Of a DNA stretch of 64,000 nt, positions 5,775 to 60,872 are shown piece by piece. Location: NCBI GenBank assembly GCA_964550175.1, contig CAZJXP010000001.1:706774-770773 (forward strand). The letters are read 5' to 3'. Position 1 is the stretch's first letter, and every line of letters starts with the position of its first letter. Origin of the DNA: an uncultured Methanosarcinales archaeon. Lineage in GTDB: Archaea; Nanobdellota; Nanobdellia; Woesearchaeales; ARS49. The notes below the pieces were generated by a model that had not been told where the DNA came from, did no database searches, and worked only from the letters and a program-made list of their open reading frames with translations. A program made the translations under genes and the position numbers.

Positions 5775-6223
5775 TGCTCGACCTTCACCTTTTCAACGAT
5801 TGTGAATTCGATGGGACGCCCGTGCGTGTCATATGCAGCAACACGGTTGAACGTGTACGGCCGGCAGATGATGAGGTTGACAAGGCCCATCGTAAACAGC
5901 CCTCGCTTGTCCATGCTGCTAGGCAGGTTGTTGAAGCTCGGATGGCTGTGGACGGTCCCTACTACTTCGTGCAGCAATGGAAGGTCGGCGCTGATGATTG
6001 CCTGGCTCTCGTTCGCGTGGTAGTGCTCGTAGACGATGCCCTTAACGTAGAGAATCTTGTTCGTGACCTTTCCTTGTAGGTAGGCCGAGAACTCGTTCGG
6101 ATGGGCGTTCTTCGCGAACTCGATGACGGTCTGGATGACTTGGCGTTCGACGAAGACCGAATGGAAGACATACTCCTCAAGCCCCGAGGCTCGGAGAGTC
6201 CAACGCATCAGCTTCTTCCACAT
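5771..6223 (-). CDS. JAB/MPN (JAMM) metalloprotease, RadC-like
   Basis: JAMM motif 'HSHPSFNNLPSSMD' (HxHx7Sx2D); 4-nt overlap with polX. Confidence 0.75.
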   Translation of the reverse strand: MWKKLMRWTLRASGLEEYVFHSVFVERQVIQTVIEFAKNAHPNEFSAYLQGKVTNKILYVKGIVYEHYHANESQAIISADLPLLHEVVGTVHSHPSFNNLPSSMDKRGLFTMGLVNLIICRPYTFNRVAAYDTHGRPIEFTIVEKVKVEQ

Positions 6224-6348
6224 GCTATTGTTATCGGTGGTTGAGGTTAAAGAGCTTTTCGTCTTGTGAAAGTCAGTTTTCGGATTTTTTACTTGGGACT
6301 TTCACAAGACGGGCAAAGTTTAAATAGCGTTGGTGATGGGATGAGCGC

Positions 6349-6570
6349 ATGGGATGCACCGCATGCAACGCGCCGTTGGCGCCGAACGACAAGTTCTGCG
6401 CAGCCTGCGGCGCGGTCCAGCAAAATGCCGCTCAGGTTTCTGAGATTATCGAGGATAGCGCTGACAACCAGGTCACGACCACGTGCGACAGATGCGGCGC
6501 GGGCTTGGTTTCGGGACAGATATTCTGCACCGTGTGCGGCAAACCTTCAGTTCAACTCGGCGAAGAGTGA
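6349..6570 (+). CDS. double zinc-ribbon protein
   Basis: 'CTACNAP...CAACG' and 'CDRCGAG...CTVCG'; TATA 'gtttaaatagc' about 25 nt upstream. Confidence 0.5.
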   Translation: MGCTACNAPLAPNDKFCAACGAVQQNAAQVSEIIEDSADNQVTTTCDRCGAGLVSGQIFCTVCGKPSVQLGEE

Positions 6571-30911: not shown

Positions 30912-32771
30912 TTACTTTTTCTCGTACACAAACGCCCCATCCCAGTCCTTGGCTGGCGGATGCTTCAAGTAGAGTTCGCAGCGTTCGATGAACAACGCGC
31001 AGGACGGGTCGTTCGGTCGGATCTTTGCAGTTTCTTTGAATCCCTTGAGCGCGTCGTGGAACTTTGCCTTGAAATACAGCTCCAACGCCTTTTCGAACGA
31101 CGTGACGAACGCTTGGTCCTGGTCGACGCATAAATGATAGAGTAAAACAGGAACCTTTTTTCCCTTCACTTTCACGGCGTCGAGCTTGCGGCATAAATAT
31201 TTGCCTTTGATGTGCTCGTACGTGCTTTCCGAGATGAGGATGCTGACGCCGTACTCTTTGGTGAGCCCTTCCATGCGCGAGGCAAGGTTGACCGTGTCGC
31301 CGATGGCCGTATAGTCAAACCGTTCTTCCGAGCCCATGTTACCGACTACGGCCGGGCCGGTGTGGATGCCGATGCCGATGTTCAACGACGGGACGTTGCG
31401 CTGCTTCCAATTGGCTTGCAATTCGCGAAGCGCTTTGATTTGCTCGACGGCTGTGTCACAGGCCTTCACCGCGTGGGCATCATCAAGTAAGGGGGCGTTC
31501 CACAACGCCATGATGGCGTCCCCGATGAACTTGTCAACAGTTCCTTGGTGCTTGAGCACGATGCGCGTCATCGTGGTGAGATATTCATTCAAGAGATGGA
31601 CCAATTCTTCCGGCGAGAGCTTTTCGCTGATGCTGGTGAAGTCGCGTATGTCCGAGAACATGACCGTGAGGATTCTTTTTTCGCCACCGAGCGTCAACTG
31701 CTGGTTTTTTGAAAGTATTTCATCCAACAGTTCTTTGCTCACATATTTCGAGAACGCGTCGCGCAAATACGCCCCTTTCGTTTTTTCCTCTGTGTACGCC
31801 ACGCTCACGCCTGCGCCGGTGAAGACGGCGAACGCCAACGGGGCGAAAAACAGGTCGATAAGGAGGTTGAACTGGTTGAACGAGATGATGGCGACAATTG
31901 CGTAAACGACAAGCAACCCGATTGCCAACGGGATGGCGTAATAATACTTCAGGCGCGCGATGAGAAACATGCCAGCAAGCGCGGCGAGGATGACGCCGAG
32001 CATTACAATCAGTTTGTCCGGCGCGCGCAAGAAATCATTGTTGATGATGTTTTGGAGTATGTTTGCGTGAATCTCGACGCCGGGCATAGCTTTTCCGTCC
32101 GACGTCGGCACAAAATAGTCGTCGTGCAAGTTCGGGGCCGTCGCGCCGATCAGGACAATCTTGTTCGCGAAACTGAGATTTTTTGCGAGCACGTCGTTGA
32201 CGCTGACGGTTTTGAACGAATGAGGGGCATCCGCGAAGTTGATGAGCAACGTTTCTTTTTCGGTCGGAGTGGCGTAACCAGCCTGTTCCGCGATGGCGAA
32301 TGAGAACGGCTTCATATCATTCGCGATGCTCGGGTTTACTCGGCGCGTTATCCCGTCAGCGTCCCCGAGAAGGTTCACATAGCCCGTGATTGACGGGAAT
32401 ATCGGCAAATACGTCACTCCTTGCTGGATTTCGGACGCTAACACGACGTTATCCATCGACTGTAACGTCGTATTCAAGAGAACATCATTCGGGCTCGGCT
32501 CAAAAAAAGAAACATCAATGCCGATTACTTTCGCGTCATTCAGTTTCTCGAGAAGATTCGCGTGGACGTCGCGGCTCCAAGGCCAGTGGCCGATTGAGTT
32601 GATGCTCGCGTCATCGATTGCGACGATGACGATGCTGTCAAGAACCGCGTTACCGCCGTACAGCTTGTCCGTGAGCGTGCCCCGCACGTGGCTGAACGAA
32701 TCAACCTGCACGAGCAGCAGCGCAAGCGCGAGCAGCCCGAGGAAAATCCCTAGCTTGCCAACTTTAGCCAT
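30912..32771 (-). CDS. CHASE2 sensor – class III adenylyl cyclase – TPR protein
   Basis: Signal/TM + periplasmic CHASE2 + 3 TM; cyclase motifs 'FSDIRDFT', 'DKFIGDAIMALW', 'IGIHTGPAVVGNMG', 'NLASRME'; C-terminal TPR-like helices. Confidence 0.85.
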   Translation of the reverse strand: MAKVGKLGIFLGLLALALLLVQVDSFSHVRGTLTDKLYGGNAVLDSIVIVAIDDASINSIGHWPWSRDVHANLLEKLNDAKVIGIDVSFFEPSPNDVLLNTTLQSMDNVVLASEIQQGVTYLPIFPSITGYVNLLGDADGITRRVNPSIANDMKPFSFAIAEQAGYATPTEKETLLINFADAPHSFKTVSVNDVLAKNLSFANKIVLIGATAPNLHDDYFVPTSDGKAMPGVEIHANILQNIINNDFLRAPDKLIVMLGVILAALAGMFLIARLKYYYAIPLAIGLLVVYAIVAIISFNQFNLLIDLFFAPLAFAVFTGAGVSVAYTEEKTKGAYLRDAFSKYVSKELLDEILSKNQQLTLGGEKRILTVMFSDIRDFTSISEKLSPEELVHLLNEYLTTMTRIVLKHQGTVDKFIGDAIMALWNAPLLDDAHAVKACDTAVEQIKALRELQANWKQRNVPSLNIGIGIHTGPAVVGNMGSEERFDYTAIGDTVNLASRMEGLTKEYGVSILISESTYEHIKGKYLCRKLDAVKVKGKKVPVLLYHLCVDQDQAFVTSFEKALELYFKAKFHDALKGFKETAKIRPNDPSCALFIERCELYLKHPPAKDWDGAFVYEKK

Positions 32772-46058: not shown

Positions 46059-46820
46059 ATGGAAATAAACGCACAAACTGCGGAATTATGCGGCATCATT
46101 CTTGGTGATGGTCACATGCATAAAACGAAAAATCGAATAACGATCTCTGGCAGCAAGGATGACATCCATTATTTCCGCAACCGAGTTATTCCCTTGTTTC
46201 TCCAATGTTTCCCAGACATACATCCCGTATTAGTTCGACTTAAAACAGCCGAGGCATATAATCTTCAAGTTGAGAATAAGTTAGCATTTCAGTTTTTTAT
46301 TCAATCATATAATTTGCAACGGGGACCCAAAGAGGCTATGCACATTCCTTTAGTCATCCTTGCGAATGATTCACTTATTCCTCATTTTCTCCGAGGACTT
46401 TTTGATACTGATGGTTCATTTAAATTTTGCAAACAGGCACGCGGTTATGCATATTACCCTCGAATACGCATTGCTTTAGCCGAGTCTCCTCTCACTGATG
46501 CGTTACAGTTCCTTTTTACGCGCGCGGGATTTAAGGCGATAAAATCAGTGAAACTGAATCATGGGTTTGCAACGATGAAGAATCTTGTAACCTACGAAAT
46601 TTCCGGTTGCGCGGCTTTTGAACGGTGGATGACTCATATTTGTCCCGCTAATCCTGTGCAAAAAGCAAAGTATGACTATTGGACGAAATATGGACGTCAT
46701 GAGCCAGGAATGATTTATGAAGAAAGAATTTACAAAATAGCCTCGGGCGGATTCGAACCGCCGTCAACGCGTCCAGAGCGCGCTATACTTGACCAACTAT
46801 ACGACGAGGCTTTAAAGTAA
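46059..46820 (+). CDS. free-standing LAGLIDADG homing endonuclease (double motif)
   Basis: 'LCGIILGDGHM' and 'LRGLFDTDGSF'. Own TATA 'catataaatg' about 22 nt upstream. The last ~28 codons are antisense to tRNA-Gln. Confidence 0.7.
   Translation: MEINAQTAELCGIILGDGHMHKTKNRITISGSKDDIHYFRNRVIPLFLQCFPDIHPVLVRLKTAEAYNLQVENKLAFQFFIQSYNLQRGPKEAMHIPLVILANDSLIPHFLRGLFDTDGSFKFCKQARGYAYYPRIRIALAESPLTDALQFLFTRAGFKAIKSVKLNHGFATMKNLVTYEISGCAAFERWMTHICPANPVQKAKYDYWTKYGRHEPGMIYEERIYKIASGGFEPPSTRPERAILDQLYDEALK
46738..46811 (-). tRNA. tRNA-Gln (anticodon CTG)
   Basis: Acceptor AGCCTCG/CGAGGCT (A1:U72); D stem GTAT/GTAT; anticodon stem GCGCG/CGCGT with loop CTCTGGA; T arm GGCGG-TTCGAAT-CCGCC. TATA 'agctttttaaacc' upstream. 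Confidence 0.8.
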
Positions 46821-53910: not shown

Positions 53911-55692
53911 ATGCGCTACGCAGAATTAGCCGAAGTCTACGAGAAGCTGACTTCGACGACGAAACGTCTCGAGAAAACGCATATCCTTTCGGAATTCATG
54001 AAGCGCATTCCGGAAACTGATTTTGACCATGTGCTGCTCTTGGTGCAAGGACGCATCTTTCCGGCATGGGACCAGCGCGACATCGGCATGGCGAACCAAT
54101 TGGTGTTGAAGGCGATGAATCTTGCAACCGGCGTCGATTTGGTAACTATTGAGAAACGTTTCAAAAAAACCGGCGATCTCGGGCTGACGACGTTCGAGCT
54201 GATGAAAACAAAGACACAAGCGACCTTGTTCAGCCAATCATTATCCACCAAAAAAGTGTTTGACAATCTTAGAAAGCTTGCGACACTTGAGGGGGCGGGA
54301 ATGGTTCAGGCGAAGACGCAGCTCGTGGCTGAATTATTGACGAGCGCGACCCCGATTGAAGCACAATATCTTGTCAGAACCGTGCTGCAGGACCTCAGGA
54401 TCGGGCTGGGCGAAGGAACGATGCGCGACGCCATCGTCTGGGCGTTCTTCCTCAAGGACACGGGCTGCCATTATGATGAAGCGAAGAAAACGCTCGTCAT
54501 CCCGGAAAACCGTGAGAAATACGCTTCATACGTTGCTGCCGTTCAGGACGCCATCAATCTCACAAATGACTTTTCTTCGGTAGCTCGAACTGCGAAGAAG
54601 AAAGGATTAGCGGGACTGAAAAACATTGAATTGAATTCCGAAACTCCGATTAAAGTCATGTTGTATCCTAAAGCGAAAGGAATTGAGGACGCGTTCGAGA
54701 TCGTAGGCTCGCCGGCCGCGTTCGAGTACAAGTACGACGGATTCAGGATCCAAATCCACAAGAAAGGCAAAAATGTCATGCTTTTCACGCGCAGCTTGGA
54801 AAATGTCACGGCGCAATTTCCCGAAGTCGTGAAGCTCGTGCTTGACAAAGTCAAGGGAGATGAATTTATCCTCGATGGCGAGGCCGTTGGGTTCGACAAG
54901 GCCACGAGCAAATACGTCCCGTTCCAAAGCATCAGCCAGCGCATAAAAAGAAAATATGACATCGCTGCGCTCGCGGCAAAGATTCCGGTTGAAGTGAATT
55001 TGTTTGACGTCATCTCGTACGAAGGGAAGGATTTGCTCTTGACGCCGTTTCACGAGCGTCGAGTATTACTGAAATCATTAGTTGCGAAGCCTGAGATTCA
55101 TAAGTTGAAATTGGCGGAGCAGATCATCACGGACTCGGTCAAAGAAGCCGAGAAATTCTACAAGCAAAGCCTCGCGACGGGGAATGAAGGAATCATGGTC
55201 AAGTCATTGTCGGGACAGTACATCCCCGGCGCGCGCGTCGGGCAGGGCGTGAAGGTCAAGCCAGTCATGGACACGCTCGAAGTCGCGGTTGTCGGCGCCG
55301 AATGGGGGGAAGGGAAGCGCGGCAAATGGCTGGCGACATTCGTCATCGCCGTGCGTGACGCCGATACCGGCGAACTGATGGAAATCGGACGCGTCGGCAC
55401 CGGATTCAAGGAAAAAGAGGAAGAAGCGGTCGACGGCGGAGTTACGTTCCAGAAGATGACGGATTTGCTGAAACCATTAGTTGACGGAACTGACGGTCGC
55501 GTCGTTTCGGTGCGGCCGAAAATCGTCATCGAAGTCAATTATGAGGAAATTCAGGCGAGCCCGACGTACTCTTCAGGCTATGCGTTGCGGTTTCCGCGAT
55601 TCGTGAAATTGCGAGAGGATAGAGGACCTGACGACGTTTCCACGCTCGCGGACGTCGAACAGCTTTATTCCGGCCAGCGCGGAAGAAATTAA
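53911..55692 (+). CDS. lig: ATP-dependent DNA ligase
   Basis: 'EYKYDGFRIQIH' (KxDG), 'DGEAV', 'EGIMVK', OB domain. Confidence 0.9.
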   Translation: MRYAELAEVYEKLTSTTKRLEKTHILSEFMKRIPETDFDHVLLLVQGRIFPAWDQRDIGMANQLVLKAMNLATGVDLVTIEKRFKKTGDLGLTTFELMKTKTQATLFSQSLSTKKVFDNLRKLATLEGAGMVQAKTQLVAELLTSATPIEAQYLVRTVLQDLRIGLGEGTMRDAIVWAFFLKDTGCHYDEAKKTLVIPENREKYASYVAAVQDAINLTNDFSSVARTAKKKGLAGLKNIELNSETPIKVMLYPKAKGIEDAFEIVGSPAAFEYKYDGFRIQIHKKGKNVMLFTRSLENVTAQFPEVVKLVLDKVKGDEFILDGEAVGFDKATSKYVPFQSISQRIKRKYDIAALAAKIPVEVNLFDVISYEGKDLLLTPFHERRVLLKSLVAKPEIHKLKLAEQIITDSVKEAEKFYKQSLATGNEGIMVKSLSGQYIPGARVGQGVKVKPVMDTLEVAVVGAEWGEGKRGKWLATFVIAVRDADTGELMEIGRVGTGFKEKEEEAVDGGVTFQKMTDLLKPLVDGTDGRVVSVRPKIVIEVNYEEIQASPTYSSGYALRFPRFVKLREDRGPDDVSTLADVEQLYSGQRGRN

Positions 55693-55861: not shown

Positions 55862-55935
55862 GTATTACCTTGCTCCCGTAGTATAGCTTGGATAGTACGC
55901 GGCCCTGCGGAGGCCGCAGCCGGGGTTCAAATCCC
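55862..55935 (+). tRNA. tRNA-Arg (anticodon GCG)
   Basis: Acceptor GCTCCCG/CGGGGGC; anticodon stem CGGCC/GGCCG with loop CTGCGGA; T arm CGGGG-TTCAAAT-CCCCG. Confidence 0.85.
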
Positions 55936-56022
55936 CGCGGGGGCGTCTTACTTCATTTGTAGTCACTTCGTAGTGGTTAATAATAGAAAGATTTATAAAG
56001 GGGAACTTGGGTTATTGACGGT

Positions 56023-57357
56023 ATGACCGAATCTGAGCACCGCATCGACGCGACGTCGAAAGACTCCCAGCACGGCGTAGATGCCCGACTCGAGAATGAG
56101 ATTCGAAAGCACGCGCTCAACGCGCTTCTCTACATCAACCAGCGCGCGAGCCTAACGACCGAAACCATTGATGGAAAGACCGTTGAACTCAGCCCGCTTG
56201 AATCGGCTTGCAGAGCTATTGCCTTGTCCGTTTCTGATGTGTTCTCCCATACCAAAAATTCGGAGGGCACCATCGATTGCGCCGTGAGCATTGCGCCGAA
56301 ATCCGATCCGAAGCAAGCGCGCGTCTACGCGATCAAGGAATCGGACGACGAACATTGGAAAGACCTCAACGGCGTGCACCATCGACAGGGAGCATCCAAC
56401 TTCGCAACCTACGAGATTCCCCTCGGCGCGGACGCGACGAACACCGCGCTGATTTACATCTGCGCACCGCTGAGCCAAGTTGACGATTATGTCCAATTCC
56501 GATTCTTGCAGGAAATAAAGCCCCATTTAGCGACGACCTTGAAGGTGGCGAACGGCCGCACCAAGGAACTTGACGCTAACCGAAACTTGACGAAGAAATT
56601 CGTGCGCAGCCATCTCGGCAAGAACTATGAGCTCGCCGAAATTTCAATCCTTCCGCCGTATTTCAAGAAAAGCTCGGGGTTGCAGCTGTTGGGAAAAGTC
56701 ATCCAGAAGATGCACAAGTCAAACGAACCGTTGAGCGTCATGATACTTGACTTCGACAATTTCCATGATTATAACGGTGCCTATGGCCACGGTCAAGGAG
56801 ATGTTGCGCTCACACATCTGGGACGGGAAATCTACAAAAATATCGATCATACCCATCCGCACGACATCAAAAGCATCTACGATTATTTGCTCGCCTCTTC
56901 GTGCCCGGGCGACTCGGCAAACCACGAGCCCGACGCGGAAAAGCACTTTAAAGCGTGCGAAGAATGGAAGAACCAAATTGTCGAGAACCTCGCGCACAAG
57001 ACTCCAGGCGACTTCCTCATCAGATACGGCGGCGAAGAGCTCGTCGCGGTTCTTGTCGGAGCAACTCCTCAACAGGCAGAAAGCGCGGCCAAGCGAGTGC
57101 AGCAGCACATCAACGACTTAGTGATTCCCGCGCCGATGAACAGCAAAGCCCAGAGGCTCTACGGCCCGAAGCAGCTGCCCGTCAGCAAAGTCACCGTTTC
57201 CATCGGGGTCAGCGGCATGCTGCCCGATTCGATGATATCAGGTAAAGAGCTCATTGAAGAGGCGGACGGCGCGCTGTACGCGGCGAAAGACGCGGGCAGA
57301 AACCGCGTCATGCTGTACGATCCTGCGACGATGAAACCGCACGTTACCCAAGAGTAA
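56023..57357 (+). CDS. GGDEF-domain nucleotide cyclase (GGEEL variant) with N-terminal sensor-like domain
   Basis: 'MILDFDNFHDYNGAYGHGQGDVAL', 'RYGGEELVAVL', 'VTVSIGVS', 'EADGALYAAKDAGRNRV'. Confidence 0.8.
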   Translation: MTESEHRIDATSKDSQHGVDARLENEIRKHALNALLYINQRASLTTETIDGKTVELSPLESACRAIALSVSDVFSHTKNSEGTIDCAVSIAPKSDPKQARVYAIKESDDEHWKDLNGVHHRQGASNFATYEIPLGADATNTALIYICAPLSQVDDYVQFRFLQEIKPHLATTLKVANGRTKELDANRNLTKKFVRSHLGKNYELAEISILPPYFKKSSGLQLLGKVIQKMHKSNEPLSVMILDFDNFHDYNGAYGHGQGDVALTHLGREIYKNIDHTHPHDIKSIYDYLLASSCPGDSANHEPDAEKHFKACEEWKNQIVENLAHKTPGDFLIRYGGEELVAVLVGATPQQAESAAKRVQQHINDLVIPAPMNSKAQRLYGPKQLPVSKVTVSIGVSGMLPDSMISGKELIEEADGALYAAKDAGRNRVMLYDPATMKPHVTQE

Positions 57358-57418
57358 CCTTTTAATAGTAGTAATTTAAAAAGCTCCCAGGAGCTTCAGG
57401 AAGGGGTGGAGATGAACA

Positions 57419-57976
57419 ATGAAAACATACTCCGAACTCAAAGAAGACAGCCTGCCCACGATTAAAGAGTACACTCCTGAATTGCTGGTTTCTCGCATTC
57501 AGGACGCCGTTGCTTCGCATCCTGAACAGCCTCGTTTGGCAATGCTGGCGGACATCGACGCCTTCAAGTGCTATTTCGACGAATACGGCCCTGAACAGCG
57601 ACTTATCGTGCTCGGCAACGTCAATGACTATTTCAGTCATTTGAAGAAAAAACACGAAATTTCATTAATTGACCGCATGAAGATCGACCAATTTTTCCTG
57701 CTCGCGCCGATGAAAGACGGGCTGGCAGAGCGAATCCGACAGGACATCGACCAAATGCGCTTTCCGAAGCACGATCTGAACTCGACAGAGGTCCCGCTTG
57801 AGGACGGAAGAACAATATCGCCGAACCACGTGACGGTCCACATCGGCCAGATCGGATTCATCCCGAACCAGTCGCTCGACTACAGAACGATGCTCTTCCG
57901 ATTACATGAGCTCACGCGTGGCATCGGCGCGGACAAGACGCTTAGAAAAGACTGGAACGAGTATTCAGTGCTTTAA
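57419..57976 (+). CDS. degenerate GGDEF-like domain protein
   Basis: 'MLADIDAFKCYFDEYGPEQRL' and 'VTVHIGQIG' are conserved, but the GGDEF motif is replaced by 'DRMKIDQFFLL'. Confidence 0.5.
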   Translation: MKTYSELKEDSLPTIKEYTPELLVSRIQDAVASHPEQPRLAMLADIDAFKCYFDEYGPEQRLIVLGNVNDYFSHLKKKHEISLIDRMKIDQFFLLAPMKDGLAERIRQDIDQMRFPKHDLNSTEVPLEDGRTISPNHVTVHIGQIGFIPNQSLDYRTMLFRLHELTRGIGADKTLRKDWNEYSVL

Positions 57977-59481
57977 TTGTGCTCTCCCGTCTGCTTCTTC
58001 ACGTTTAACGCGACGGCTTTTCCGAGAATGTCGGTGAGCTTTTCAATGGATGCTTTTCTGACGTCGCCCAAATCCTTGATGCCTGATTTGAACATTGTCC
58101 TTGCGCGGATGCGACCGATGCCTTCGAGCTTCAAAAGCGGCAACAATTCTTCCTTCGCGCCGTACTTCAATCTTGTTCGCGCGCGGTTTATCTCTTTGAT
58201 AATGGGGTTGAGGCCGAGGATGTTCGCCAGTTCCTTCATGCCGTACAGCAGCCAGTCCGCGTTGTCCTTCTTGACGTGCAGCTCGCCGGGACGCACATTG
58301 AACTGATCCAGGAGCGCCTGCTCGTCATCCTCCTCCATCCAGGCATTGAGCATCATCGTCGTCTTCACGGCGTTGAGGTAATCGTCGTATTCGGCCTCGA
58401 ACGCGCTCGGCTCGTCGACAAGCAGTTCAGGCTGCCATTCGACTAACTTAGCCTGCACTGGAGCGTAGTCTTTCGTTCCCACGTTGAGCAACGGCCGCAT
58501 CTCGAGCGTCGTGCACAACGTATGGATGAACGCAATCACATTCGTTGTTTTAGCCTTGATTGCCTTTCTCAATGCGGTTACGAGCTCGTGCGCGGTCAAC
58601 GGGTCGAGATACAGTTCAGCGACGCGCTTACCCAACACGGTTGCGTTGAACGCGACGTCTTTTTCCAGCTCGTCCGCCGAGACGAAATCGTCTGCTTTCT
58701 TTGACGGCAGGATGAATTCCCATTCTTCCAGCATCGCGAGCATGCGGTCAATGATGTGCTCGAGCTTTTCTAAATCTTTGAATTGGAATGCCCAGAACGT
58801 CTTGCTGAAGAACGTCATCAATTCTTTTCTTGTATGCACGAATCGTGACGCGATGAGCGAGAGAATGTAGGTTCTTAACACGGGCTCGACCGCGAGCTTC
58901 GAGTAGATGTCTTCCGGCACGCCGTTGATGTAGCGCACGGTAAGCTCGTCCTTGTCGAATTGCGAGCTCGCGACGCAGATGGCCTCGCCGACATTTTCGA
59001 ACTTCGGACGGCCGGCGCGGCCAGCAATCTGCAGATATTCCAGCACGGGAATGAACCCCATCCCGCGCTGGCTGTAGCGTTTCAGGTCTCGGATGATGCA
59101 GCGAAACGCCGGAAGGTCGACGCCCATTGCCAACGTCGGCGTGCATGCGATGAAGCTTATCGTCCCGTTGCGGAAGTTGTCCTCGATGAGCGTCTTTTGC
59201 GTGCCATGCAAGCCTGCGTGGTGGAACGCGACGCCTTGTTCGACGCAACGGGCGAGGCGCTCGCATTGGACTGTTGGTCGAGGGAGAGCGTGGAGCAATT
59301 TTTCCGAAAGCTCTTTCAGCGCGGGTGAGGAATGCTTGATTTTTTTCCCGATGTCCTCAGCGACCTTTTCGGCGCTGCGCTTGGCGTTGACGAACACCAA
59401 TGCCTGCTTCTTTTTTTCCAGCGTGTCGAGACAGAGATTGATGACACCATCAGACGTCTTTTCAGGGATTTTAACTAACAT
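57973..59481 (-). CDS. Hel308/Ski2-like helicase lacking the N-terminal RecA1 (DEAH) domain
   Basis: Motifs IV-VI present ('LVFVNAKR', 'TPTLAMGVDLPA', 'QIAGRAGRP') + WH + ratchet + HLH. Walker A/DEAH absent. Only 53 bp of AT-rich DNA upstream. Confidence 0.75.
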   Translation of the reverse strand: MLVKIPEKTSDGVINLCLDTLEKKKQALVFVNAKRSAEKVAEDIGKKIKHSSPALKELSEKLLHALPRPTVQCERLARCVEQGVAFHHAGLHGTQKTLIEDNFRNGTISFIACTPTLAMGVDLPAFRCIIRDLKRYSQRGMGFIPVLEYLQIAGRAGRPKFENVGEAICVASSQFDKDELTVRYINGVPEDIYSKLAVEPVLRTYILSLIASRFVHTRKELMTFFSKTFWAFQFKDLEKLEHIIDRMLAMLEEWEFILPSKKADDFVSADELEKDVAFNATVLGKRVAELYLDPLTAHELVTALRKAIKAKTTNVIAFIHTLCTTLEMRPLLNVGTKDYAPVQAKLVEWQPELLVDEPSAFEAEYDDYLNAVKTTMMLNAWMEEDDEQALLDQFNVRPGELHVKKDNADWLLYGMKELANILGLNPIIKEINRARTRLKYGAKEELLPLLKLEGIGRIRARTMFKSGIKDLGDVRKASIEKLTDILGKAVALNVKKQTGEHN

Positions 59482-59534: not shown

Positions 59535-59936
59535 TCATGCGCAGCTTTTGGTGCAGTCGCGCTTGCATTCGCTTCGGAAGACGATTTCGCATTCTTTCGT
59601 GGCTTCCGTGTTGCACGAGGCTTTGCAGCCTTCCGGTCGAAGGAAGGTTCCGCAGTTCTCCACGCAATCATAATAGTTCGTGCCTTGGCCGCAGACTTTG
59701 TTTGAGTTCATTGCGCAGGCATCGGTGCAGTCAGGAACGCACGTTTCAGAGGTGATTGGGGTTTCAGAAGCCGACGGAGTTGTGGGCGTTGGAGTCGTGA
59801 CTAGGGGGGTTTCTGGCGCGGGAGCAGTCGGAGTCTCAGGGGGAACCGTCATCGGCGTTTCGACAACGGGCGGAGTTGTTGGCTGGCAGGCTGCCAAAAT
59901 AATTGAAAGCAGTCCGACAATCAGGATTTTTTTCAT
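59535..59936 (-). CDS. Cys-rich lipoprotein
   Basis: Lipobox 'ILAAC'; Pro/Thr linker; 16 Cys in the C-terminal 70 aa. Confidence 0.55.
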   Translation of the reverse strand: MKKILIVGLLSIILAACQPTTPPVVETPMTVPPETPTAPAPETPLVTTPTPTTPSASETPITSETCVPDCTDACAMNSNKVCGQGTNYYDCVENCGTFLRPEGCKASCNTEATKECEIVFRSECKRDCTKSCA

Positions 59937-59945
59937 ACATTCACC

Positions 59946-60872
59946 TCAACAGGTCACGGCGCAGGCGGCTTTACAGGCCACCAAATCATCGCTGCACGTT
60001 GATGTGCAGCGTGGAACAAGATAGTCTTGGCATTCATCGATCGTGCCTTCTTGGCAGCCGTCGCGGCAGTATACCGGGTGCATGAACACGTTGCATGCAT
60101 CTCGGCAGAAGTCCTCATCTTCGGCTTCGCAGCCCGCGGTCACGGCGTCCTCGCAACCAGCGCCGCAATCATCATCGGCCGTGTCGCAGGCATCGGAGCA
60201 ATCGTCAATGCAGCTTTCGCGCGAGGTGTTGAGCTGCAGTACGGTGAACAGTTCGTCAGATGAACGCACAACCGTATCTGCAAGCGTTGTGAACGTGACT
60301 GTTCTGTTCATAATTTCGACTCCATCCCAGACTTCCGCCTTGAGCGACGGCGTGATGTAGGCGCTTTCACCGACAAGCCTGACGGTGCCGGGCAAAATCG
60401 TGAGCAGCACGCCCGTCGGGTGCGTTTCAACGAGCTTCAGCGTTATTGGCAACGTGATTGTGCCATAAGGAATTTCGCCGTCATATTCGACGTTATCTTT
60501 CGTCGCTTCGGCATCCAATTTGAATCGCATCTGCGTGAATTCCTGCGGCGGCATCTGGACATCGATCACCAATTGCGGGTTCTCGTTCGCGACGATGTCC
60601 ACGCTCACCTTTTCTGAGCTGAGCTTTTTCCAGCTGTCTTTTGTCTTGTCGTACAGCTCGATTTCGCCAACTTTGAGCTTGAACACGTCAAAGCCTTCAA
60701 CTGTCCCGGTCGTCGCGACGACGAACTGCGCGAGCTTTTCTTCGACTTCAACGGGCTCGGGAGTCGTGTTCGTGACGTTCGGAATCACAGGAGATTCAAC
60801 CGGGACTTTCGAGGAGCAGGCGACTAACAAGAATACGATTAACAACAACCACTTTTTTTGCATAGCATTCAA
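59946..60872 (-). CDS. Cys-rich lipoprotein (paralogous C-terminal domain)
   Basis: Lipobox 'LLVAC'; beta-rich middle; C-terminal 'CxDDCSDACD...CRDGCQEG...C' cluster. Confidence 0.55.
   Translation of the reverse strand: MNAMQKKWLLLIVFLLVACSSKVPVESPVIPNVTNTTPEPVEVEEKLAQFVVATTGTVEGFDVFKLKVGEIELYDKTKDSWKKLSSEKVSVDIVANENPQLVIDVQMPPQEFTQMRFKLDAEATKDNVEYDGEIPYGTITLPITLKLVETHPTGVLLTILPGTVRLVGESAYITPSLKAEVWDGVEIMNRTVTFTTLADTVVRSSDELFTVLQLNTSRESCIDDCSDACDTADDDCGAGCEDAVTAGCEAEDEDFCRDACNVFMHPVYCRDGCQEGTIDECQDYLVPRCTSTCSDDLVACKAACAVTC

Follow-up and report, generated by a model that had tools for sequence, protein, structure and literature searches.

A putative diguanylate cyclase gene and a degenerate GGDEF partner form a conserved two-gene module in Woesearchaeota

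Cyclases in which a sensor domain is joined through a long coiled-coil helix to a GGDEF domain are well described in bacteria. Examples are the Idiomarina phytochrome-diguanylate cyclase (DGC; 5LLW), the Pseudomonas aeruginosa GAF-GGDEF protein Dcsbis (4ZMU), a LOV-DGC (8C05), WspR and PleD. GGDEF folds with a destroyed active site are known as well, such as E. coli CdgI, the GGDEF domain of FimX, PelD and PopA, and these proteins are proposed or shown to bind other GGDEF domains or cyclic di-GMP (c-di-GMP) (PMC5635695). In Archaea, the precedents are RCIX2274 of Methanocella arvoryzae, with the architecture REC-PAS-PocR-GGDEF-HD-GYP, and the REC-inactive-GGDEF proteins of ‘Ca. Micrarchaeum’, a DPANN lineage (PMC5847659; bioRxiv 10.1101/2021.11.05.467447). 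Reviews still treat archaeal GGDEF genes as unconfirmed, and have pointed out that c-di-GMP has not been seen in any archaeon and that GGDEF, EAL and HD-GYP genes in archaeal metagenome-assembled genomes (MAGs) may be contamination (PMC10249747, PMC10086821, PMC5847659, bioRxiv 10.1101/2021.11.05.467447). This work describes two adjacent GGDEF-fold genes, ORF1 and ORF2 (open reading frames 1 and 2), in a 64,000-nt stretch of archaeal DNA (hereafter the window; GCA_964550175.1, contig CAZJXP010000001.1, positions 706,774 to 770,773), whose nearest relatives are labeled Candidatus Woesearchaeota (DPANN/Nanobdellati phylum).

RCIX2274 and the ‘Ca. Micrarchaeum’ proteins resemble this locus in that GGDEF domains occur in archaeal genomes, including one of the DPANN. 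Those are individual multidomain genes of bacterial appearance, and their origin in archaea was not settled, whereas the locus described here has another architecture, a separate partner gene, and a provenance backed by synteny, promoters and selection. Its main features are listed below in window coordinates; related loci and proteins are denoted by L and P numbers.

56023..57357, + strand: ORF1, a 444-amino-acid (aa) GAF-like/coiled-coil/GGDEF protein, putative diguanylate cyclase
56080..56472, + strand: ORF1 N-terminal alpha/beta sensor domain (aa ~20-150), GAF-like by predicted fold only
56485..56616, + strand: ORF1 long helix (aa 155-198) linking sensor and GGDEF domain, helix H155-198 of the AlphaFold2 (AF2) model
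56644..57327, + strand: ORF1 GGDEF catalytic domain (aa 208-435), placed by alignments to WspR and GcbC, with GGEEL at 57028-57042
56845..57000, + strand: insertion of ~50 aa (aa 275-326) in the ORF1 GGDEF domain, predicted helical at low confidence (predicted local distance difference test, pLDDT, 48-62)
57358..57418, + strand: 61-nt ORF1-ORF2 spacer with a second TATA-like box, an AGTAGTA element and a Shine-Dalgarno-like GGTGGAG
57419..57976, + strand: ORF2, 185 aa, a degenerate GGDEF fold standing alone (‘GPEQR’ family)

ORF1 matched Pfam GGDEF (PF00990; E=1e-25, 90.8 bits against a cutoff of 23.8) and TIGR00254 (E=6.4e-27, 94.3 bits against a cutoff of 37.4), and it aligned in two blocks to the solved diguanylate cyclases GcbC, WspR, DosC and PleD. 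The automatic annotation of NCBI labels the locus proteins diguanylate cyclase or GGDEF-domain protein. The AF2 model of ORF1 (pLDDT 74.6) comprises an alpha/beta domain, a long helix and a GGDEF domain in which the GGDEF fold is present. This order of sensor, long helix and GGDEF domain is shared with the bacterial cyclases named above, and the architecture matches 5llw, 4zmu and 8c05. In alignments, the helix corresponds to the coiled-coil linkers in 5llw, 3i5c and 6ttr, and it is presumed to act as a coiled-coil dimerization and signaling helix. ORF1 differs from the bacterial cyclases in its archaeal host and promoters, its N-terminal domain (no Pfam family matched), its His in place of Lys332 (PleD numbering), its missing RxxD I-site and its GGDEF insertion. 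The initial annotation had noticed an insertion loop between the first motif and the GGDEF motif, and such a loop is indeed present: it lies between the GHxxGD helix and the GGEEL hairpin and corresponds to a gap in all bacterial GGDEF alignments. It is full-length in the window and in NC_groundwater_1244, and measures ~20 aa in the other lineages.

The cyclase hallmarks first read from the sequence, LDFDNFHDYNGAYGHGQGD, RYGGEEL, TVSIG and YAAKDAGRNRV, are all present and could be related to PleD, for which residue roles are described (PMC12943098, PMC7288161). The metal ligands (PleD D327 and E370) are kept as ORF1 D243 and E338, the guanine ligands (N335 and D344) as N251 and D260, and the phosphate ligands (K442 and R446) as K422 and R426, as in bacterial cyclases. 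The hairpin residues R366, G368, G369, E370 and E371 are kept as R334, G336, G337, E338 and E339. Here the GGEEF of PleD becomes GGEEL (F to L) within RYGGEEL (aa 334-340), a form that is also found in 41 of the 69 related, mostly bacterial GGDEF proteins. The ORF1 GGDEF domain is thus apparently catalytically competent, judged from its residues. The I-site RxxD, five residues upstream of GG(D/E)EF, is lost (TPGD instead), so that no classical product inhibition would be expected.

The same pattern extends to the relatives of ORF1. The equivalents of PleD D327, D329, F331, N335, G339, G343, D344 and K442 are invariant in all ten archaeal cyclases compared, and nine of them have GG(E/D)E(F/L/I/M), occurring as GGEEF, GGEEL, GGDEI and GGEEM. 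The tenth, in L020, reads QGEEL, and the L014 cyclase carries R366H. Lys332 is kept in the cyclases of L017, L021, L022 and L023, and those of L022 (5076-5936) and L023 (1810-2688), which are distant relatives, are fully canonical, with GGEEF, Lys332 and an RxxD I-site (RAYD and READ, respectively) that no other archaeal cyclase compared has. Because four relatives keep Lys332 and two of these are fully canonical, it can be argued that the ancestral function of the module was c-di-GMP synthesis.

ORF2 on its own gave a weak Pfam GGDEF match (E=1.9e-4, 21.7 bits, below the cutoff of 23.8). Five of six close members of its family match Pfam GGDEF, the family profile aligned to the GGDEF profile over 137 columns (hhalign 98%, E=2e-13), and in the PDB this profile matched only GGDEF proteins (best E=1.2e-4). 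The GGDEF motif itself is lost, as had been proposed, with RMKIDQF in place of RxGGDEF. ORF2 retains the leading Asp of DxD and the Arg that precedes the hairpin, and of the hairpin itself D-Q-F is left. The guanine ligands (N335 to Phe, D344 to Leu), both hairpin glycines and the equivalents of K442 and R446 are gone, and canonical GTP binding is therefore impossible. The I-site position reads HEIS; RxxD was found in two of 15 aligned family members (P0123 and P0124, with RDVD and RDID). The resemblance to the receptor GGDEF proteins of bacteria, suggested earlier, therefore holds for the fold and fails for the RxxD I-site that those receptors use. ORF2 shares with CdgI, FimX, PelD and PopA a GGDEF fold with a destroyed active site. 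Unlike them, it is a bare single domain without I-site, carries the signature NE[YF]GPEQR for NDxxGHxxGD, and is genetically coupled to a cyclase gene.

An HMMER search of 1.84 billion representatives with the ORF2 profile returned six proteins at E<=1e-30 and 13 at E<=1e-10. The additional members are single-domain proteins of 155-205 aa with NE(Y/F)GPEQR where cyclases have NDxxGHxxGD; one carries the annotation ‘hypothetical protein’ in a Woesearchaeota MAG. All members found so far occur in archaeal contexts. Pattern scans of public collections are limited by the pattern and missed relatives that the profile search later caught: among GTDB species genomes, only the two known Woesearchaeota MAGs and weak bacterial matches were retrieved, and the JGI metagenome contigs gave no useful match. 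Full-text literature searches returned no paper on Woesearchaeota GGDEF genes or on the GPEQR family. GPEQR proteins thus make up a previously undescribed family, and their genes nearly always follow immediately on that of a GGDEF cyclase. In four archaeal neighborhoods that differ from that of the window (L020, GCA_018302085.1; L021; L022; L023/L024), the small gene lies 36-64 nt downstream of the GGDEF gene on the same strand. Since the pairing recurs in these other neighborhoods, the cyclase and its dead paralogue constitute a two-gene module that is conserved in a wider group of archaea.

A recent duplication of ORF1 as the origin of ORF2 was considered and is unsupported, as the ORF2 profile scores bacterial GGDEF proteins above the ORF1 family. 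The Gln of GHxQGD/GPEQR is found in 9/10 archaeal cyclases and 15/15 small proteins, against 5/65 bacterial matches. This residue, common to cyclases and small proteins and rare among the bacterial matches, gives a weak hint that the partner may have arisen by duplication within this lineage. Two longer proteins, P0128 (1274 aa) and P0131 (576 aa), also matched the GPEQR profile. They consist of GGDEF-like repeats in tandem, 3-6 in number, whose motifs are degenerate to varying degrees (for example YGYEEGD, YGLGEGE and ARYGRDEF). With active and dead GGDEF domains strung along one chain, such proteins may represent a fused counterpart of the two-gene module.

The genes and signals that surround the pair are as follows.

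53911..55692, + strand: ATP-dependent DNA ligase, conserved upstream neighbor and syntenic anchor, outside the module
55871..55947, + strand: tRNA-Arg(GCG), directly 5' of the cyclase gene (ARAGORN and Rfam)
55960..55977, + strand: near-palindromic element TAGTCACTTCGTAGTGGT, candidate operator upstream of the cyclase promoter
55985..55999, + strand: archaeal B recognition element (BRE)/TATA box AGAAAGATTTATAAA, ending 23 nt before the ORF1 ATG
57973..59481, - strand: Hel308 helicase without N-terminal RecA1 domain, convergent neighbor with a 4-nt overlap with ORF2, syntenic anchor

The exact ORF1 protein was found on a 969,452-bp NCBI contig and in an independent Logan assembly, with identical gene order. 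Six lineages share the order nitroreductase < ligase > tRNA > GGDEF > small GGDEF < Hel308, namely the window genome, NC_groundwater_1244, NC_groundwater_1245, SRR32573209, GCA_975468935.1 (= JGI 3300031576) and SRR12262942. The syntenic assemblies are independent of each other (NCBI, JGI, ENA, Logan) and include contigs of 969, 548, 242 and 138 kb. Identity between these lineages is 67-82% for the flanking genes, 30-47% for the cyclase and 27-65% for the small protein, so the pair evolves fast and yet stays in a stable slot. When the two closest lineages are compared, the ratio of nonsynonymous to synonymous substitution rates (dN/dS) comes to 0.054 for the cyclase gene, 0.074 for its small partner and 0.045 for Hel308; both genes of the pair are under purifying selection. 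GC content, GC content at third codon positions (GC3) and synonymous codon choice of ORF1 and ORF2 are in line with the rest of the window (z=+0.71 and +0.42), in which no compositional step was detected. Pfam scans of the ~60 window genes returned an archaeal gene set, including TFS, aEF-1beta, NucS, Trm1, XPD and an archaeal/eukaryotic-type uS15 (S13/S15 N-terminal domain), next to RtcA, a diphthine-synthase-like methylase, FtsZ, PolX, the ATP-dependent ligase and Hel308. The archaeal context, proposed from the surrounding genes, is thus borne out by gene set, synteny, native promoters and codon usage.

These data bear directly on the alternative that bacterial GGDEF genes were mis-joined into an archaeal contig. 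When GGDEF or HD-GYP genes turn up in archaeal MAGs, the literature suspects contamination by default (bioRxiv 10.1101/2021.11.05.467447; PMC5847659), and one MAG has a contig break inside the GGEEF motif. Against a chimera stand the identical gene order in six lineages from independent assemblies, the absence of a break in composition or codon usage, and archaeal TATA promoters conserved across lineages. In addition, the best bacterial relatives are at most 32% identical over GGDEF-spanning alignments and point to no consistent donor; identities of up to 45% were reached only over 23-27% of the ORF1 query. A chimeric contig, named at the outset as what could undo the finding, is therefore rejected as far as the sequence data reach, and we consider contamination hardly credible here. 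The broken MAG (GCA_016203265.1) has its cyclase gene split exactly in GGEEF, between the end of L004 and the start of L011. Joining the two contigs at their 11-nt overlap would give RYGGGEEF, with one extra Gly, which may reflect an artefact at the contig ends or heterogeneity between strains and not a true variant. In a neighbor-joining tree of the GGDEF domain, the nine archaeal cyclases included cluster in the point estimate, with only 20% bootstrap (57% for the clade in the ligase slot), and no bacterial donor was identifiable from this tree. In view of the synteny kept over large contigs, the promoters of archaeal type, the codon usage that matches the genome and the purifying selection, the GGDEF module appears to be a resident, vertically inherited part of this Woesearchaeota clade.

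The promoter signals are themselves conserved. A TATA motif upstream of the cyclase gene is kept in all lineages examined, and in the window, the same TTTAWAWA box was found within 60 nt upstream of 11/59 genes (mostly at about -30 to -40; expected 0.02 per 60 nt). As the TATA box ends 23 nt before the ATG, the ORF1 mRNA would be leaderless or nearly so. The near-palindrome at 55960-55977 can be written as TAGTCACT-N3-TAGTGGT and is a perfect GTCACT/AGTGAC inverted repeat in L014; its conserved form is GTCACT-N4-AGTGRY. It is alignable across 7-8 lineages, in which the cyclases are only about 30% identical. The 64-kb window contains one exact match, and two matches at up to 3 mismatches, which is not above chance. 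A related AGTAGT(A/G) element is situated 5' of the TATA box of the partner gene (AGTAGTA at 57363-57374), and the two elements are candidates for a shared operator. The spacer further contains a TTTAAAAA TATA-like box at 57375-57382 and GGTGGAG at 57405-57411. A TTTAAATA/TTTAAAAA box is present in the spacer of nearly all pairs examined and is not evident in the 36-nt spacer of L020.

The reading that we lean towards, and hold to be somewhat better than even, is a native Woesearchaeota module in which ORF1 works as a diguanylate cyclase under sensor control and ORF2, itself non-catalytic, regulates the cyclase or reads its output. ORF1 would be a cytoplasmic sensor cyclase with a GAF-like domain, a long helix forming a coiled-coil dimer and an intact GTP/Mg2+ site. 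Its sensor would align the two GTP-loaded GGDEF domains of an ORF1 homodimer, upon which two GTP would be condensed to c-di-GMP. ORF2 would contact the GGDEF domain of the cyclase through a protein-protein interaction. As a regulator, it could compete with productive homodimerization; as an adaptor or effector, it could pass the state or the product of the cyclase to a target. An ORF1/ORF2 heterodimer would be unproductive, because GGDEF catalysis needs two GTP-loaded domains. In E. coli, heteromeric GGDEF-GGDEF contacts involving degenerate domains are reported, and they are proposed to be inhibitory or regulatory (PMC5635695). The active and degenerate halves of mammalian adenylyl cyclase (C1/C2) and Cas10 (palm1/palm2) build one shared active site; ORF1 and ORF2 differ from these in being separate genes and in that a GGDEF/dead-GGDEF heterodimer cannot make c-di-GMP.

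Several observations weigh against a c-di-GMP-producing pair. c-di-GMP has never been detected in any archaeon (PMC10249747). No EAL, HD-GYP, PilZ or MshEN domain and no c-di-GMP riboswitch was found in the 64-kb window or the related loci fetched (Pfam, Rfam; for the riboswitches, the window and five related loci), a search that did not extend to the other ~900 kb of the genome. The transition-state stabilizer K332 of PleD is replaced by H248 in ORF1, so activity may be reduced or altered. This position is Lys in 65/69 related sequences and H, R or G in 6/10 archaeal cyclases. The ORF2 model, for which the degenerate GGDEF of FimX (3hva) is the best Foldseek match (E=4e-4), is of low confidence (pLDDT 64). 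ORF2 has a promoter-like box of its own, so that cotranscription with ORF1 is no more than a possibility. Finally, the ligase/tRNA-Arg/Hel308 slot of L018 (ENA ERZ23498356, 293-kb contig) holds only the small gene (6001-6471; P0129, 156 aa, GPEQ region deleted) and no adjacent cyclase gene. The latter suggests cyclase loss or partner independence, with a partner that is not strictly dependent on a neighboring cyclase.

Some of these points feed the view that ORF1 is not a cyclase at all. It could be a GTP-binding or otherwise re-purposed GGDEF protein, comparable to the GTP sensor PdeA or the ATPase YybT, that makes no cyclic dinucleotide; re-purposed GGDEF domains are documented (PMC12943098, PMC7288161). 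The His at position 332, variable in the family (H/R/G/K), fits this view, as do the L014 and L020 substitutions, the fast evolution of the genes relative to their neighbors and the finding of no phosphodiesterase or effector nearby. Yet every other catalytic or substrate-binding residue of ORF1 is invariant and under strong purifying selection, a His could still provide the positive charge at this position, and the relatives that retain Lys332, two of them canonical throughout, speak for c-di-GMP synthesis as the ancestral function. We therefore judge a non-enzymatic ORF1 unlikely, though the most serious of the alternatives. Much less can be said for a Hypr-type or hybrid cyclase, in which ORF1 alone or an ORF1/ORF2 heterodimer would make cyclic GMP-AMP (cGAMP) or a mixed dinucleotide. 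The unusual features of the locus (insertion, K332H, degenerate partner) might invite this idea, which the initial annotation had raised together with the advice to inspect the selectivity residue. Hypr specificity rests on a Ser at PleD D344 (PMC7288161, PMC12943098). This residue is Asp260 in ORF1 and Asp in all ten archaeal cyclases, so that GTP as substrate and c-di-GMP as product are expected; Asn335 is kept too, and ORF2 has no base- or phosphate-binding residues with which to present a second nucleotide. A hybrid product is accordingly very improbable.

The role of ORF2 leaves room for a different emphasis, namely that it is a receptor or effector of c-di-GMP (or GTP) and not a regulator, with an output that possibly reaches the DNA-repair genes Hel308 and ligase. 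In the clade of close ORF2 relatives, a polar cluster around what was once the active site is invariant (D45, E55, E59, Q60, R86, D90, Q91, H141), the degenerate GGDEF proteins FimX, PelD, PopA and CdgI act as receptors, with 3hva as the best fold match, and the pair lies close to the (split) Hel308 gene in most lineages, even where other neighbors have changed. On the other hand, a conserved RxxD I-site, the only established c-di-GMP site in GGDEF folds, is missing, D90/Q91 of the hairpin are not conserved in the wider family, Hel308 is encoded on the opposite strand, and the tRNA-Arg/Hel308 adjacency may be mere retained ancestral synteny. A pure receptor role thus seems doubtful, to nearly the same degree as a non-enzymatic ORF1. 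A shade more speculative still is a minimal, self-contained c-di-GMP circuit in DPANN archaea, consisting of the sensor cyclase and a GPEQR receptor/effector without classical EAL/HD-GYP/PilZ machinery, with an output perhaps to Hel308/ligase DNA repair or to host-cell interaction. If true, this would be the first c-di-GMP signaling pathway in Archaea and would add a new class of c-di-GMP effectors. A part in anti-phage defense was also considered and is rejected, as neither ORF1 nor ORF2 had a PADLOC match (CBASS, Pycsar, type III CRISPR-like).

The neighboring genes have a history of their own. The ligase (Pfam DNA_ligase_A_N/M/C, E=1e-41 to 6.5e-53) occupies the same position in L002, L004, L014, L017 and L018, with 71-73% aa identity between lineages. 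A tRNA gene lies between ligase and cyclase in L002 and L017 (anticodon not determined), and tRNA-Arg(GCG) adjoins the pair or the small gene in L018, L020 and L023, despite their differing neighborhoods. It is found in either orientation (window 55871-55947; L018 5842-5917; L020 4722-4797; L023 1627-1699). Hel308 is recurrently located 0-4 kb from cyclase or partner genes, and this adjacency of tRNA-Arg and Hel308 reflects either deeply retained synteny or a functional link. The window Hel308 matches NCBIfam PRK02362 (E=3.4e-132) at profile positions 223-705 of 739 only, with the RecA1/DEAH part absent, and contains Pfam Helicase_C, HTH_61, Helicase_dom4_arc and HHH_5. A truncated Hel308 of 489-526 aa is adjacent to or near the pair in most related lineages; L021 has a long, intein-containing Hel308 gene instead. 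A separate 221-aa DEAD/ResIII protein in L022 (2545-3210) looks like the missing half, so that the Hel308 gene of this clade seems to be split in two; the N-terminal half was not found in the 64-kb window with tblastn.

Further observations concern other genes of the window. A second bacterial-style signaling gene (30912-32771, - strand) encodes a membrane CHASE2 sensor fused to a class III adenylate/guanylate cyclase domain (CHASE2 1.4e-49, Guanylate_cyc 1.4e-28). It resembles Pycsar PycC cyclases (PADLOC 1.5e-32) and has genome-typical codon usage. A low-GC ORF without Pfam match (46059-46820, + strand; GC 0.419, GC3 0.37, codon-usage z=-3.25) is flanked by two tRNA-Gln genes and overlaps one of them at that gene's end. 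The L017 gene at the matching position has a faint LAGLIDADG_3 match, and the ORF may be a homing-endonuclease-like mobile gene. Downstream of Hel308, two Cys-rich predicted lipoproteins are encoded (59535-59936 and 59946-60872, both - strand), conserved in position in related lineages and fast-evolving (33-53% identity between lineages). Homologues of the larger one contain DUF4382, for which the window copy gave no Pfam match.

The enzyme family to which ORF1 belongs is known, and the locus reveals no new chemistry. What is new is its archaeal residence with evidence for vertical inheritance, its unusual architecture and a dedicated family of pseudo-enzyme partners. The locus offers sequence-level evidence against contamination and, as strongly as in-silico data can, indicates that a c-di-GMP-type module is native to some archaea. 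It also supplies concrete genes, including fully canonical relatives, with which the question of archaeal c-di-GMP becomes testable, and the coupling of GPEQR proteins to cyclases may serve as a simple system for the regulation of a GGDEF enzyme by a dead paralogue.

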